Positions 34,092 to 54,390 of a stretch of DNA of 57,795 nucleotides are shown here, piece after piece (position 1 is the stretch's first letter; each line of letters opens with the position of its first letter). The notes below the pieces were generated by a model. It had not been told where the DNA came from and did no database searches. It was given only the letters and a program-made list of their open reading frames with translations. The position numbers and the translations under genes are program-made. Source of the DNA: Candidatus Woesearchaeota archaeon (GTDB taxonomy: Archaea > Nanobdellota > Nanobdellia > SCGC-AAA011-G17 > CAYHUM01); assembly GCA_964359945.1 (NCBI GenBank), contig CAYHUM010000001.1, forward strand, positions 1 through 57,795, in the 5' to 3' direction.

Positions 34092-35612
34092 ATGGTAAAC
34101 GAGAATCTTAAAAAAATAGTTAAAGGAGCAGCTTTAGTTTTTATAGGAATAATTATATCTAAAATATTTACATATTTCTACAGATTATACATTGCTCGTT
34201 ATCTAGGAGCAGAAAATTATGGTTTATTAAATCTAGGATTTGCTGTTTTAGGAGTTGCTACAGCAATTAGTCTTTTGGGATTGCCAAGTGGGGTTCTAAG
34301 ATATGTTTCATATTATAAAGGGAAAGAAAATTATAAGAAAGTTACGTCAACTATAATATCAAGTTTAAAGATTACCATTCCATTAAGCATTATTATAGGT
34401 ATTCTGCTATTTATATTTTCTAAAAACATATCAATTCATTTATTTCATACAGAGAAACTTATTATAATAATAAAATTATTTGCTATTTTAGTTCCATTTT
34501 CTGTAATTTTATCGAATTTAGAAGTTATTACACAAGCATTTCAGAAGATTAAATATAATATATTTATAAGAAATATTTCTGAAAGTAGCATTCAATTATT
34601 TTCAACGATTTTATTAGTATCTATTGGATTAGGAATATTGGGAGCTGTTATAGGATATATGATAGCTATATTTTCTAGTGCTTTATTGTTTTTTTTAGTT
34701 GTACAAAAAAAGGTTTATCCATTTATTAATGCAAAGATAAAAATAGAAAATAATTATAAAGAAATATTATTTTATTCATGGCCACTAATCTTTGTTTATT
34801 TATTAGGTATGATAATTGCTTGGACTGATAATATTTTTATAGGATATTTTAAAGATGCTTCTAGTGTTGGATTGTATAATACTGCTTTACCAACATCAAG
34901 ACTGTTAATGATAATACCAACTACTATAATATTTCTTTTTATTCCTATAATAACTGAACTTTATGGGAAGAATAAGAAAAAAGAAGTTGAAAAGGTATAT
35001 AAAACAACCACTAAATGGACATTTTTCTTGAATTTTCCTATTATGTTACTTATGATATTATTTTCTAAACAAATATTAAATTTTTTATTTGGTAAAGAGT
35101 ATTTAGGAGCTGCTTCTGCTCTAGTAGTACTCTCACTTGGACATTTTTTTTATTCATTAACACAATTATCTAGCAGTGTATTACAAAGTATTAAAAAAAC
35201 AAAAATAATATTGTTAAATTCAATAATAATAATAATATTGAACCTAATACTAAACATTTATTTAATATCTAAATATGGTATTTTAGGGGCGGCTATTGCA
35301 ACTAGTATCTCTTTTTTTGTTAGTAGCATTCTTTTTTACTTTGAAGCCTATATTTTTACAAAGATTCAACCAATTACAAGTAATATGCTTAAGTCTATGA
35401 TCGCAGGAGTTTTATCTACAGCTATAATATATTTAATTATAAAATTCATATTTGTTGATTTATCTTTATTACTAGCAATCCCACTTGCAATTATATTTTT
35501 TGTATTATACATAATCTTATTATTAATCTTTAAGAGTTTTGATAAAGAAGACTTATTGATAATTAGATCTATCCTAAATAAATTTAATATTAAATTATTT
35601 AAAAAATCATAA
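34092..35612 (+). CDS. oligosaccharide flippase (Wzx / Polysacc_synt family)
   Basis: Start chosen at MVNENLKKIVKGAALVFIGIIISKIF. The longer track ORF from 33972 overlaps tRNA-Ser. The protein has about 12-14 TM segments. Confidence 0.7.
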   Translation: MVNENLKKIVKGAALVFIGIIISKIFTYFYRLYIARYLGAENYGLLNLGFAVLGVATAISLLGLPSGVLRYVSYYKGKENYKKVTSTIISSLKITIPLSIIIGILLFIFSKNISIHLFHTEKLIIIIKLFAILVPFSVILSNLEVITQAFQKIKYNIFIRNISESSIQLFSTILLVSIGLGILGAVIGYMIAIFSSALLFFLVVQKKVYPFINAKIKIENNYKEILFYSWPLIFVYLLGMIIAWTDNIFIGYFKDASSVGLYNTALPTSRLLMIIPTTIIFLFIPIITELYGKNKKKEVEKVYKTTTKWTFFLNFPIMLLMILFSKQILNFLFGKEYLGAASALVVLSLGHFFYSLTQLSSSVLQSIKKTKIILLNSIIIIILNLILNIYLISKYGILGAAIATSISFFVSSILFYFEAYIFTKIQPITSNMLKSMIAGVLSTAIIYLIIKFIFVDLSLLLAIPLAIIFFVLYIILLLIFKSFDKEDLLIIRSILNKFNIKLFKKS

Positions 35613-36611
35613 TATTTTTTCTCTTTTCATTATTTCCTTTATTTCATCTTTAGTTAAAATTTTTTTATTAAAAGTTTTTGGAGATTTTATATTTTTAAAT
35701 TTAGCTTGTTGAGGAAGTATTACATACATATCATCCATCTCTATTGTTCTACTTACTTCTTCTTCAGTCATTAAAGATTCATTCATTTTTTCTCCTGGAT
35801 AACTGCCTATATAATTAATATTTATATCATTTGGATCATAATTATATTTAGGAGCTAACTCTTTTATCATAACATCTGCTATATCTGTTATTTTAGCTAT
35901 GGGCATTTTTAAAACAAATATTTCCCCTCCTTTTGCTATTGTTGCAGATTTTAAAACTAAATTAACTGCACTTTTTACAGACATTAAAAATCTTGACATT
36001 TCTTTATCTGTTATTGTAACAGGTCCTTTTTTGATTATCTGCTCTTTAAACAAAGGTATAACAGACCCCCTAGAATTTATTACATTACCGAATCTCACAG
36101 TAGTAAATATTGGTTTAGCAACCTTTCTGTAAAATGTAGCCCAGCTCATTAATTTTTCTGCTAATAATTTGGTTGTTCCCATTGTACTATTAGGATTAAC
36201 TGCTTTATCTGTACTAATAAGAATTACTTTCTCTACACTTTTTTCTCCCAAGGCAACCTTTATTACATTTTGTGTTCCAGTAATATTTGTTTGAATAGCT
36301 TCGAAAGGATCATATTCACACCATCTAACATGTTTTAAAGCTGCAGCATGAAAAATAAAGTTGATATCTTCTATTGCTCTCTTTAATCTTTCTAGATCTC
36401 TAATATCACCTAATAAATATCTTACTTTAGTATCTGGACCTTGTGGAAGTTCTTTTTCCATTTCATATTGCATGTGTTCATCATTACTGAGAACTCTTAT
36501 AACTTCTGGATCATATTTAAGTAATTGTCTAACTATTTCACTACCTATAAAACCTGTTCCTCCTGTAACTAAAATTCTTTTATTTTTAAATATATTATTA
36601 GTTTTTTTCAT
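35607..36611 (-). CDS. nucleotide-sugar (UDP/GDP-GlcNAc) 4,6-dehydratase, extended SDR (PseB/LegB/CapD/PglF family)
   Basis: ILVTGGTGFIGSEIVRQL is the Rossmann motif. STDKAVNPNSTMGTTKLLAEK has Met in place of the SDR Tyr, as in CapE/PglF-type enzymes. Confidence 0.8.
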   Translation of the reverse strand: MKKTNNIFKNKRILVTGGTGFIGSEIVRQLLKYDPEVIRVLSNDEHMQYEMEKELPQGPDTKVRYLLGDIRDLERLKRAIEDINFIFHAAALKHVRWCEYDPFEAIQTNITGTQNVIKVALGEKSVEKVILISTDKAVNPNSTMGTTKLLAEKLMSWATFYRKVAKPIFTTVRFGNVINSRGSVIPLFKEQIIKKGPVTITDKEMSRFLMSVKSAVNLVLKSATIAKGGEIFVLKMPIAKITDIADVMIKELAPKYNYDPNDININYIGSYPGEKMNESLMTEEEVSRTIEMDDMYVILPQQAKFKNIKSPKTFNKKILTKDEIKEIMKREKIL

Positions 36612-36616
36612 TTTGA

Positions 36617-53180: not shown

Positions 53181-53218
53181 TTTCGTAAACTGAGTATAAG
53201 AATTTTTAAATGTTTCTA

Positions 53219-54307
53219 TTACAATACTGATATTTTATTATACAAATACTTGATAATTCTTTCAGATGAGTTTCCATCACCAAAAGGATTTTCAAAATTA
53301 GTTTTTATTTTTAGCATTTTATTGACACAATCTAAAATCTTATTCTCGTCTGTTCCTGCCAAAATATTACTTCCAATATCTATAGTCTCAGGTCTTTCTG
53401 TCTTTTCTCTTAAAGTAACGCAAGGAACTTTTAAAATGCAACTTTCTTCTTGAATCCCACCAGAATCTGTTAAAACTAAACGAGCATTATTTTGAATTTG
53501 AATGAACTCAAGATATCCTAAAGGAGGAATAATTTTAACAAAAGAAGGAACTTTTATTTCAAATGTTTCAATATTTTTTATTGTTCTAGGATGAGCAGGA
53601 AAAATTATAGGATAACCATACTTCTCATTAACTAATTTAAGACCATTAAATACACTTTGTAACAAATCTTTATTATCAACGTTTTCTGGACGATGTGTTG
53701 TAAGTAAAAAATAATTTTTAGGTTGTAAATTCAATTTTTTTAAAACTGAATTTTTCTTTTTTGAAATCTCTAAATTTTTGTTTATAGCATCCACAATAGG
53801 ATTTCCAGTTATTATTATTTTTTCTCTTGGAATTCCTTCCTGGATTAGATTGCCATAAGAAACATTTGTTGGTGCAAATAAAAAATCTGAAAGATGGTCT
53901 GTAACTATTCTATTAATTTCCTCAGGCATTTTCCTATCATAACTTCTTAGTCCTGCTTCAACATGTCCTAATTTTATATGAAGTTTGGAGGCAGCTAAAG
54001 CTCCTGCTAATGTGGAATTAGTATCTCCTAAAACTAAAACTGCTTTTGGTTTTTCCTTAATAAGAATTTTTTCTATACCCAAAAGCATCATTCCAGTCAT
54101 TTCACCATGCGTTTTTGATCCAACATTAAGATTGTAATTTGGTTGAGGTAATTCTAGTTCTTCAAAGAAAAGTTTGTCCATATTATAAGAATAATGTTGT
54201 CCAGTATGTATTACAAAATAGTCACTTTTTTTATTATGGAGATATCTAATTATAGGAGACAATTTTATTATATCAGGTCTTGTACCAACTATAACACATA
54301 TTTTCAT
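53219..54307 (-). CDS. wecB: UDP-N-acetylglucosamine 2-epimerase, non-hydrolysing (WecB/WbpI family)
   Basis: MKICVIVGTRPDIIKLSPII...VLGDTNSTLAGALAA...VEAGLRS...PEEINR...TDSGGIQEE. The track ORF extends 5 codons further, to 54322. Confidence 0.85.
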   Translation of the reverse strand: MKICVIVGTRPDIIKLSPIIRYLHNKKSDYFVIHTGQHYSYNMDKLFFEELELPQPNYNLNVGSKTHGEMTGMMLLGIEKILIKEKPKAVLVLGDTNSTLAGALAASKLHIKLGHVEAGLRSYDRKMPEEINRIVTDHLSDFLFAPTNVSYGNLIQEGIPREKIIITGNPIVDAINKNLEISKKKNSVLKKLNLQPKNYFLLTTHRPENVDNKDLLQSVFNGLKLVNEKYGYPIIFPAHPRTIKNIETFEIKVPSFVKIIPPLGYLEFIQIQNNARLVLTDSGGIQEESCILKVPCVTLREKTERPETIDIGSNILAGTDENKILDCVNKMLKIKTNFENPFGDGNSSERIIKYLYNKISVL

Positions 54308-54390
54308 AGATGTAGTCAACATATATAATATTTATAAACATATTGCTAACTTCAAAACCTTCTTAAATCTTATTGTATAGTTCTTATTCC

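Follow-up and report, generated by a model that had tools for sequence, protein, structure and literature searches.

The 57,795-nt contig CAYHUM010000001.1 of Candidatus Woesearchaeota archaeon (GenBank assembly GCA_964359945.1), analysed here in full length and called the window, carries exactly 17 consecutive open reading frames (ORFs) on its minus strand between positions 35607 and 54322. We read this array as a surface-glycan operon, the core of which probably makes a cytidine monophosphate (CMP)-activated 5,7-diamino-3,5,7,9-tetradeoxy-nonulosonic acid of the legionaminic acid (Leg) lineage, one that is probably formylated at N7 and modified further. The window is the entire contig C1 of an assembly of 771,822 bp in 60 contigs that is 95% complete, and the host is a groundwater archaeon with a reduced genome (0.77 Mb), as had been recognized in the original prediction; ribosomal protein S28e, STT3/AglB and Nop5 with fibrillarin are encoded as archaeal markers. 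No 16S rRNA gene was found in the 60 contigs, and the names of homologues of the radical S-adenosylmethionine (SAM) enzyme described below point to Nanoarchaeota/Woesearchaeota. An identical NeuB protein with the same neighbour genes is present on a contig of the ENA assembly 'Hain_H51_01um'.

In the order of transcription, the array comprises the following genes, with family matches in brackets (UDP, uridine diphosphate; GlcNAc, N-acetylglucosamine; ManNAc, N-acetylmannosamine; aa, amino acids).

53219..54322, minus strand: WecB, non-hydrolysing UDP-GlcNAc 2-epimerase, predicted to provide UDP-ManNAc for the glycan (TIGR00236, 417 bits, cut-off 210)
52137..53180, minus strand: GT4 glycosyltransferase (PF00534, 70 bits)
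50977..52116, minus strand: GT4 glycosyltransferase (PF00534, 118 bits)
49170..50990, minus strand: 606-aa GT-B protein, candidate nonulosonate transferase (C-terminal 145 aa resemble the BFO_1060 family)
47901..49112, minus strand: radical SAM/SPASM enzyme of an uncharacterised family tied to CMP-ulosonic acid genes (PF04055 and PF13186)
46775..47845, minus strand: Gfo/Idh/MocA oxidoreductase, hereafter GFO (PF01408, 84 bits)
45552..46778, minus strand: second DegT aminotransferase, DegT2 (PF01041, 339 bits)
44833..45555, minus strand: NeuA, predicted CMP-nonulosonate synthetase of NeuA/LegF type (PF02348, CTP_transf_3, 100 bits)
43812..44858, minus strand: NeuB, LegI-like nonulosonic acid synthase with NeuB and SAF domains (TIGR03569, 466 bits, cut-off 400)
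42697..43815, minus strand: MtnA-type (5-methylthio/5-deoxy)ribose-1-phosphate isomerase (PRK05720, 449 bits, cut-off 271; TIGR00512, 403 bits)
42108..42704, minus strand: class II aldolase/adducin-family protein (PF00596, 46 bits; weak matches to aldolase and MtnB models)
40620..42083, minus strand: secreted LamG/dockerin protein, no pathway enzyme (PF13385, 85 bits; Dockerin_1, 22 bits)
39915..40523, minus strand: left-handed beta-helix (LbH) acetyltransferase of WcaF/Maa/LacA/NeuO type, probably an O-acetyltransferase (WcaF family, 98 bits)
38722..39849, minus strand: NeuC, hydrolysing NDP-sugar 2-epimerase of NeuC/LegG type (TIGR03568, 409 bits, cut-off 236)
37739..38725, minus strand: ArnA/Fmt-like N-formyltransferase with N- and C-terminal domains (PF00551 and PF02911; ArnA, 223 bits)
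36617..37735, minus strand: DegT-family sugar 4-aminotransferase, DegT1 (PF01041, 411 bits)
35607..36611, minus strand: predicted UDP-GlcNAc 4,6-dehydratase of the soluble Polysacc_synt_2 type, 334 aa (PF02719, 336 bits)

Adjacent genes overlap at seven of the 16 junctions (by 4, 8, 4, 26, 4, 4 and 14 nt) and are otherwise separated by 3-96 nt, so that both the co-directional 17-gene arrangement and the many 4-26-nt overlaps of the original prediction are borne out by the ORF listing. The overlaps at formyltransferase/neuC, neuB/neuA, neuA/degT2 and degT2/gfo suggest translational coupling. For all named families the ORFs match the profiles over nearly their full length, so that frameshifts are absent, and the catalytic residues are intact in all six core enzymes (motifs of NeuB, NeuC, dehydratase, DegT and formyltransferase were checked). 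Since the G+C content of the array (23-30%) matches that of most of the contig, nothing marks it as foreign. Six genes form the core of nonulosonate synthesis and up to four serve in tailoring, while the others belong to glycan assembly or are unrelated; these non-core members include the secreted LamG/dockerin protein, the MtnA-type isomerase with the class II aldolase, and four glycan-assembly enzymes. The earlier figure of more than 18 kb for one sugar was thus overstated.

From homology and gene order, the pathway would begin with conversion of UDP-GlcNAc to a UDP-4-keto-6-deoxy sugar by the Polysacc_synt_2 4,6-dehydratase and amination at C4 by DegT1. The new amine would then be formylated by the ArnA-like formyltransferase, which would take the place of the LegH/PglD acetyltransferase, before the NeuC-type enzyme cleaves off UDP with epimerisation at C2. 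The LegI-like synthase would condense the resulting hexose with phosphoenolpyruvate (PEP), and the NeuA-type enzyme would add CMP. Further changes to the predicted 5-acetamido-7-formamido nonulosonate are probably made by the WcaF/Maa-type O-acetyltransferase and the trio of radical SAM enzyme, GFO and DegT2, and the carrier glycan would be built and exported by WecB, the GT4 and GT9 enzymes and a flippase. The legionaminic-type pathway of the original prediction accordingly stands as far as a CMP-activated 5,7-diamino nonulosonate of the Leg lineage goes, while the D-glycero-D-galacto configuration is not readable from the sequence.

The synthase falls on the LegI side of its family. The reference sequences comprised Neisseria meningitidis NeuB and Campylobacter jejuni PseI from PDB alignments; NeuB1/NeuC1, PseB and PglF from C. 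jejuni GB55, a strain in which PseI and NeuB1/NeuC1 but no Leg genes were found; the LegB, LegC, LegI, LegG and PtmE orthologues of C. jejuni 414, which lie in canonical order; and Acinetobacter loci whose NeuC shares 84-97% identity with the solved LegG-type structure PDB 5XVS. Identity of the window NeuB is 51% with the LegI orthologue of C. jejuni 414 and 34-36% with NeuB1 and PseI of C. jejuni. In the tree, a split with 96/93 support places the window NeuB and five same-order relatives together with the bacterial Leg clade (holding the C. jejuni 414 LegI orthologue and the Acinetobacter synthases from the 5XVS-like loci) on one side, and the N-acetylneuraminic acid (Neu5Ac) clade (N. meningitidis NeuB, C. 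jejuni NeuB1) together with the PseI clade on the other; the window protein branches with its same-order relatives, as a neighbour of the bacterial Leg clade rather than a member of it. The approximately unbiased (AU) tests agree, as a forced grouping with PseI was rejected (p 0.0027) and one with the Leg clade was not (p 0.21), and the phylogenetic check proposed for the synthase therefore came out in favour of the LegI side rather than the Neu5Ac or PseI clade. The score on the PseI model (284 bits) is under the cut-off of 340, and the PDB scores (SpsE 205, N. meningitidis NeuB 199, PseI 193 bits) do not discriminate between pathways. The catalytic residues E22, K50, K130, D135, Y187, H215, E234, H236 and R314 are in place; those of N. 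meningitidis NeuB are kept except for E134D and N184T, the former change being typical of archaeal and eukaryal synthases (PMC8208679). The closest bacterial NeuB (54% identity) is found in two SAR11 loci, L134 (Pelagibacteraceae AG-891-O15) and L125; about 7 kb upstream, L134 also has a PseB-clade dehydratase and another NeuB paralogue, which sits on a long branch and does not fall within the core PseI clade.

The presence of a NeuC-type hydrolysing epimerase in place of PseG, as originally proposed, was confirmed by the TIGR03568 score above cut-off and by the lack of any PseG match in the 95%-complete genome. The GDR...GGE...D...QH motifs of NeuC align with those of GNE and LegG-type 5XVS, for which the PDB scores (220 and 200 bits, respectively) again do not separate the pathways. 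In the tree, NeuC joins DPANN-order relatives and Nitrosopumilaceae in an archaeal group (93/92) that is separate from the Neu5Ac-type clade (99/100) and likewise from the bacterial LegG clade (95/81); judged by this placement, it is not a Neu5Ac-type enzyme. The observations that the original prediction had named as telling against it, namely a synthase or epimerase in a Neu5Ac- or pseudaminic acid (Pse)-specific clade, lost catalytic residues or frameshifts, were thus not made.

At the acylation step the analysis departs from the original prediction, in which the combination of NeuC with an LbH acetyltransferase was taken as the legionaminic logic. This argument fails, since the LbH protein is of the WcaF/Maa type and the slot of LegH, between aminotransferase and NeuC, is filled by the ArnA/Fmt-like formyltransferase, the gene of which lies 3 nt from that of DegT1 and overlaps neuC by 4 nt. 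The formyltransferase carries the motif NAHNSPLPKYRG and a C-terminal domain, and scores best in the PDB on the ArnA formyltransferase domain (170 bits; PseJ, 48 bits). No other Formyl_trans_N protein is encoded in the genome; archaea are not known to formylate initiator Met-tRNA. The dehydratase, DegT, NeuC, NeuB, NeuA, LbH and WecB families named earlier are all present, with the correction that the LbH protein is not a member of the PglD/NeuD N-acetyltransferase family: on the NeuD/PglD model it reaches 58 bits (cut-off 160.8) with the LbH part alone, without the PglD N-domain, and no PglD/NeuD-type LbH protein above cut-off was found in the genome (best 56-58 bits). Its PDB scores are 70-75 bits for SACOL2570/Maa/LacA, 66 for NeuO, 55 for QdtC, 40 for PerB and 34 for WlbB, with no PglD match. 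The protein is therefore probably a WcaF/Maa-type O-acetyltransferase. Because no PglD-type enzyme is present in the window, the simplest prediction is that the formyltransferase acts on the 4-amino group, so that the sugar would carry 5-acetamido and 7-formamido groups and weigh about 302 Da as a residue.

The same association recurs among relatives. In a sample of 400 other high-quality genomes of the phylum, all of 0.5-2.1 Mb (genomes and loci are designated G and L), a homologue of the formyltransferase is encoded by 20; it adjoins NeuC and/or NeuB in G082, G213, G261 and G416, lies less than 6 kb from NeuB in G060 and G281, and forms, in G083, part of a 664-aa fusion with NeuB (L229:5751-7745). 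Homologues are also found in Leg-type loci of SAR11 and of a Campylobacter sp. In G191 a small NeuD-like LbH protein occupies the slot and there is no formyltransferase, while G261 has both. Directly upstream of NeuB lies the formyltransferase gene of the SAR11 loci L134 and L125, and the fusion of G083 stands beside a 741-aa fusion of a radical-SAM-like domain with DegT (L229:3446-5671). A PIG-L de-N-acetylase (19467-20090, minus strand) was considered as an acetyl-off/formyl-on partner of the formyltransferase and rejected: it lies 15 kb away and abuts a GT4 gene (18342-19466, minus strand), a GlcN-lipid-like pair that resembles GlcNAc-lipid synthase/deacetylase systems. The real start of the PIG-L gene is upstream of the listed ATG.

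The dehydratase scores under the cut-offs of both the PseB model (296 against 408 bits) and the LegB model (71 against 475 bits). A branch with 98/95 support excludes it from the clade of all PseB with FnlA/CapE, and it lies outside the PglF and LgaA clades, in a loose group with Pen, one same-order relative and Nitrosopumilaceae. Its motif STDKAVNPNSTMGTTK conforms to TDKxnMx3K (STDK...MGTTK), the fingerprint of the retaining enzymes PglF/WbpM; PseB, FlaA1 and Pen carry Tyr at the Met position, and the residues that cause C5 inversion are not known (PMC8987622). PDB 6BWC is a D128/K129 variant of Pen, the wild type of which has TDK (PMC8987622); the window enzyme differs from Pen by Met for Tyr, and every sampled PseB has Tyr. 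Members of its subfamily (44-53% identity) sit with DegT, NeuC and LegI-like NeuB in G261, G416, G191 and Nitrosopumilaceae, and a Thermoplasmata Leg-like cluster encodes a dehydratase 48% identical to the window enzyme together with a true PglD_N acetyltransferase. On account of the fingerprint, the exclusion from the PseB/FnlA clade and the cluster context, the evidence leans towards a retaining dehydratase and the Leg configuration, without settling it. DegT1 scores 328 bits on PseC and 306 bits on LegC models, both under cut-off, and 206 bits on ArnB in the PDB; its pyridoxal phosphate (PLP) lysine lies in YPNKQITTGEGG, and both DegT proteins have Lys before GEGG. Orthologues 53-56% identical to DegT1 adjoin the dehydratase/NeuC genes in G261, G416 and G060.

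The suggestion that a sugar-1-phosphate nucleotidyltransferase at 32583-33335 supplies guanosine diphosphate (GDP)-GlcNAc to the pathway is unlikely to hold, given a dehydratase of the Polysacc_synt_2 family, the lack of a LegB-type short-chain dehydrogenase/reductase (SDR) above cut-off, and a nucleotidyltransferase that is not PtmE-like. To our knowledge, all characterised Polysacc_synt_2-family relatives use UDP-GlcNAc. The 250-aa nucleotidyltransferase shows 22-29% identity to the PtmE-like proteins of about 350 aa from bacterial Leg clusters, and its gene sits in a transcription unit separate from the array. No CBS domain match was reported for it, and a faint one was seen in a Myxococcales PtmE-like protein.

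NeuA scores 167 bits on the PseF model, under the cut-off of 206, and is 37-43% identical to the products of NeuA genes in Leg-type clusters; NeuA-NeuB fusions occur in G060 (L101:11739-13490) and G416 (L232:9383-11116). Upstream of neuA lie the genes of DegT2, GFO and the radical SAM enzyme. The radical SAM family has 616 homologues at E <= 1e-20, all unnamed, and six or seven of the nine best homologues in the phylum are within 5 kb of NeuB. In Altiarchaeota the radical SAM gene adjoins NeuB, CTP_transf_3 and GFO genes, in Thermoplasmata it lies between two NeuA/NeuB pairs, and in a Myxococcales nonulosonic acid cluster (L241) it is found with dehydratase, NeuC, a DegT-DegT fusion, GFO, NeuA and NeuB. 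DegT2, with its PLP lysine in SFVETKNIVTGEGG, is 37% identical to the second half of that DegT-DegT fusion, and the GFO genes of G191, G213, Altiarchaeota L239 and Myxococcales L241 either separate the radical SAM gene from NeuA or adjoin NeuA. On a Micrarchaeota contig, the radical SAM family has an HpcH aldolase and a CTP_transf_3 fusion as its neighbours. This distribution makes tailoring of the nonulosonate a likelier role for GFO and DegT2 than the synthesis of a separate sugar of WbpB/WbpE type; the latter reading, in which a 2,3-diamino sugar is made, was down-weighted on account of the overlap with neuA and of the company that the homologues keep elsewhere with NeuA and the radical SAM enzyme. 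We tentatively propose, as a possibility rather than an expectation, that radical SAM enzyme, GFO and DegT2 form a conserved module that tailors CMP-ulosonic acids and is found in DPANN-type archaea, Altiarchaeota, Thermoplasmata and Myxococcales. In the window operon it would turn the legionaminic-type sugar into an undescribed nonulosonate (for example one aminated once more, epimerised at one centre or deoxygenated in its side chain) through radical chemistry not previously linked to sialic-acid-like sugars.

Four other readings of the array were weighed against a formylated nonulosonate of the Leg lineage. The same skeleton could end as another 5,7-diamino stereoisomer (8-epi- or 4-epi-Leg, or acinetaminic-type) or as a further aminated or deoxygenated derivative, through a C5-inverting dehydratase or remodelling by the radical SAM enzyme, GFO and DegT2. 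This is somewhat unlikely, with the NeuB on the LegI side, with a TDK...M...K fingerprint and a position outside the PseB/FnlA clade that lean towards a retaining dehydratase, and with the same dehydratase subfamily occurring in a canonical PglD/NeuC/NeuB arrangement in Thermoplasmata; in its favour are the PDB scores of the dehydratase, which are highest for Pen (294 bits), FlaA1/PseB (213), FnlA (208) and CapE (204) and lower for PglF (157), the archaeal NeuC group apart from bacterial LegG, and the conservation of radical SAM enzyme, GFO and DegT2 as companions of NeuA/NeuB in several phyla. Rather unlikely, too, is that the LbH protein is a functional LegH which acetylates N4 to give Leg5Ac7Ac, with the formyltransferase acylating another amine, for example one from GFO and DegT2. 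Two aminotransferases and two acyltransferases are indeed encoded in the cluster, LbH sugar N-acetyltransferases are diverse (as the QdtC and PerB matches illustrate), and the NeuD-like LbH proteins of G191 and G261 lie between DegT and NeuC. However, the best scores of the window protein are on O-acetyltransferase families, it lacks the PglD N-domain, and its gene is separated from that of DegT1 by neuC and the formyltransferase gene, the latter being the direct neighbour of DegT1 and its product resembling ArnA, a 4-amino-sugar formyltransferase.

Two unrelated modules could also have come together, NeuC, NeuB and NeuA making CMP-Neu5Ac, and dehydratase, DegT1 and formyltransferase making a UDP-4-formamido-4,6-dideoxy-HexNAc (N-formyl-bacillosamine-like) that enters the glycan directly. 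NeuC, NeuB and NeuA alone suffice for Neu5Ac, and TIGR03569 bears the name N-acetylneuraminate synthase; yet NeuB and NeuC both lie outside the Neu5Ac-type clades, the order dehydratase, DegT, acyltransferase, NeuC, NeuB is kept in many archaeal relatives, and the formyltransferase is fused to NeuB in G083 and encoded by a gene overlapping neuC in the window, all of which makes this arrangement very improbable. We give least credence to a pseudaminic acid pathway, which can hardly be reconciled with the data: among NCBIfam models the dehydratase, DegT1 and the cytidylyltransferase do score best on PseB, PseC and PseF, but all three scores, like that of NeuB on PseI, are under cut-off, the PseI placement is rejected by the AU test, NeuC stands in place of PseG, which was not found in the genome (PseH was not searched for), and the dehydratase is outside the PseB clade with Met where all sampled PseB have Tyr.

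Several observations weigh against the proposal of a formylated, legionaminic-type sugar itself. The dehydratase belongs to no characterised clade, so the C5 outcome, and hence the Leg configuration, stays open; the C5-inverting enzymes FnlA and CapE also carry Met in the fingerprint. The archaeal group of NeuC has no characterised member, and the AU rejection of a forced grouping of NeuB with the Neu5Ac clade, from few anchors, is marginal (p 0.042), a point that also favours the two-module arrangement. The LbH protein could be an N-acetyltransferase, in which case the formyl group would be on another amine. With respect to precursors, neither GlmS nor bifunctional GlmU was found in the 95%-complete genome, nor were enzymes able to produce N10-formyltetrahydrofolate, namely formyltetrahydrofolate synthetase (FTHFS), FolD, serine hydroxymethyltransferase (SHMT) or 5-formyltetrahydrofolate cyclo-ligase; this missing supply of the formyl donor is what speaks most against formylation from within the genome itself. 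The cell presumably obtains both UDP-GlcNAc and the formyl donor from its surroundings, and as the enzymes for both were not found, the sugar coat may use host-supplied precursors. Enolase is encoded, which makes PEP available, although its match (C7:14891-15751) has one TAA inside (408-aa open frame), which could reflect a boundary effect or a broken gene.

The nearest described system is that of the haloarchaeon Halorubrum sp. PV6, with the cluster legC-legB-legF-legG-formyltransferase HrrPV6_1050-neuD...legI, in which N-formyl-Leg is proven on the N-glycans of the S-layer and of HRPV-1 and the formyltransferase is predicted (PMC6137143). Both systems are archaeal and cluster a dehydratase, an aminotransferase, NeuC, NeuB, a CMP-synthetase and a predicted formyltransferase near N-glycosylation genes, and the terminal residue of 302 Da in Halorubrum equals the increment predicted for the window sugar. 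Compared by description and not by protein sequence, Halorubrum differs in having a NeuD/PglD-type acetyltransferase and a formyl group reported at N5, whereas the window adds the radical SAM enzyme, GFO, DegT2, MtnA and the aldolase, in a 0.77-Mb host without recognisable folate enzymes. With the C. jejuni LegB/C/H/G/I/F pathway (GDP route) and the PglF/LgaA-type UDP route of Legionella pneumophila/Acinetobacter, the window has in common the steps of the hydrolysing 2-epimerase, of DegT and of the CMP-synthetase; unlike these bacterial pathways, the window has no LegH/PglD and no PtmE-like guanylyltransferase, its dehydratase belongs to neither the LegB nor the PglF/LgaA clade, and its NeuC is outside the LegG clade. 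In the PseJ CMP-Pse5Ac7Fo pathway of Anoxybacillus kamchatkensis (PDB 6CI2/6CI4), a formyltransferase likewise replaces the N-acetyltransferase acting on UDP-4-amino-4,6-dideoxy-HexNAc, but PseJ is a short single-domain enzyme in a PseB/PseG/PseI context, while the ArnA/Fmt-like enzyme of the window has a C-terminal domain and NeuC/LegI-like surroundings. The N-terminal domain of ArnA (UDP-4-amino-4-deoxy-L-arabinose N-formyltransferase) similarly acts on a UDP-4-amino sugar from a DegT-family partner, ArnB, and differs in its sugar, its pathway and its fused decarboxylase domain.

Downstream of the core pathway, the 606-aa GT-B protein is likely the CMP-sugar transferase, as judged from its C terminus and its genomic company. 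Its last 145 aa match the BFO_1060 family (NF046086) with 102 bits against a cut-off of 200, and TIGR04396 with 56 bits; an HP motif is present at residue 471, the D/E-D/E-G motif was not found, and the N-terminal 450 aa are unrelated or unrecognised. Homologues adjoin NeuB/NeuA at eleven loci (L098, L099, L102, L103, L105, L127, L229-L232 and L239). Members of the BFO_1060 family include the Pse and Leg transferases of Tannerella forsythia, the function of which was established by knock-out and complementation (PMC5420450). With these enzymes (Tanf_01245, TFUB4_00887; PMC5420450) the 606-aa protein shares the HP motif, the nonulosonic acid cluster and an adjoining gene for a ManNAc-forming epimerase, and it differs from them in reaching half the family cut-off, in its unlike N-terminal 450 aa and in the D/E-D/E-G motif not found.

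Glycan attachment could be through AglB/STT3, encoded on contig C5 (8009-8866 matched, 875-aa frame), which could place the glycan on sequon-rich surface proteins. The original prediction had pointed to many N-x-S/T sequons in neighbouring giant surface proteins; this is so for the 2212-aa ORF at 8340-14978 (minus strand), with 72 sequons compared with 36.8 +/- 5.3 in shuffles, and not for the other secreted proteins, since no enrichment was seen in the PKD protein (25665-28208), the 719-aa protein or the LamG protein. A second glycosylation region lies on contig C5 at about 8000-25500, with three extended-SDR genes (11798-12682, 16378-17247 and 24575-25444). The array itself is flanked by the following genes, with which the glycan island extends to either side.

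32583-33335, minus strand: sugar-1-phosphate nucleotidyltransferase, 250 aa (generic GlgC/AglF/GlmU-N/RmlA, 79-96 bits)
33332-33826, minus strand: methyltransferase
33972-35612, plus strand: Wzx/MOP flippase
54373..57795, plus strand: divergent flank of two GT4 genes and a GT9 gene, reaching the contig end

The MtnA gene overlaps neuB by 4 nt and the aldolase gene by 8 nt. For a dihydroxyacetone phosphate (DHAP) shunt, or 5-deoxyribose salvage, MtnA (449 against a cut-off of 271 bits) and an aldolase_II domain (46 bits) would be at hand, whereas the upstream enzyme PNP/MTAP/MtnN was not found: no protein of the PNP_UDP_1 family is detectable in the genome, and the kinase was not searched for. 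In five Nitrosopumilaceae loci (L124, L127-L130), MtnA homologues (39-43% identity) are encoded at a distance of 2-5 kb from neuC; as these loci are related, the proximity counts as one event, and it may be that or chance. Elsewhere in the window, the genes of Nop5 and fibrillarin are directly followed by one (17389-18258, plus strand) whose product has a DisA-type diadenylate cyclase (DAC) domain.

Among 60 other genomes belonging to the same order, eight gave a NeuB match; in the sample from the phylum the figure was 115 of 401, with about 80 strong matches (best E <= 1e-40). The trait, called a major investment for a small genome in the original prediction, is consequently not exceptional in the lineage, as about a fifth of the sampled genomes have a strong NeuB. 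Nor is the cluster in itself surprising, its type being already known from Halorubrum and common among relatives. No publication combining DPANN with nonulosonic terms turned up in a literature search, and the array adds a well-documented case of ultra-small archaea, probably host-dependent, that invest in sialic-acid-like surface sugars. Replacement of the N-acetyltransferase by a formyltransferase appears as a recurrent design and not as a haloarchaeal oddity, and the most useful lead to new chemistry is the trio of radical SAM enzyme, GFO and aminotransferase that travels with NeuB/NeuA across phyla.

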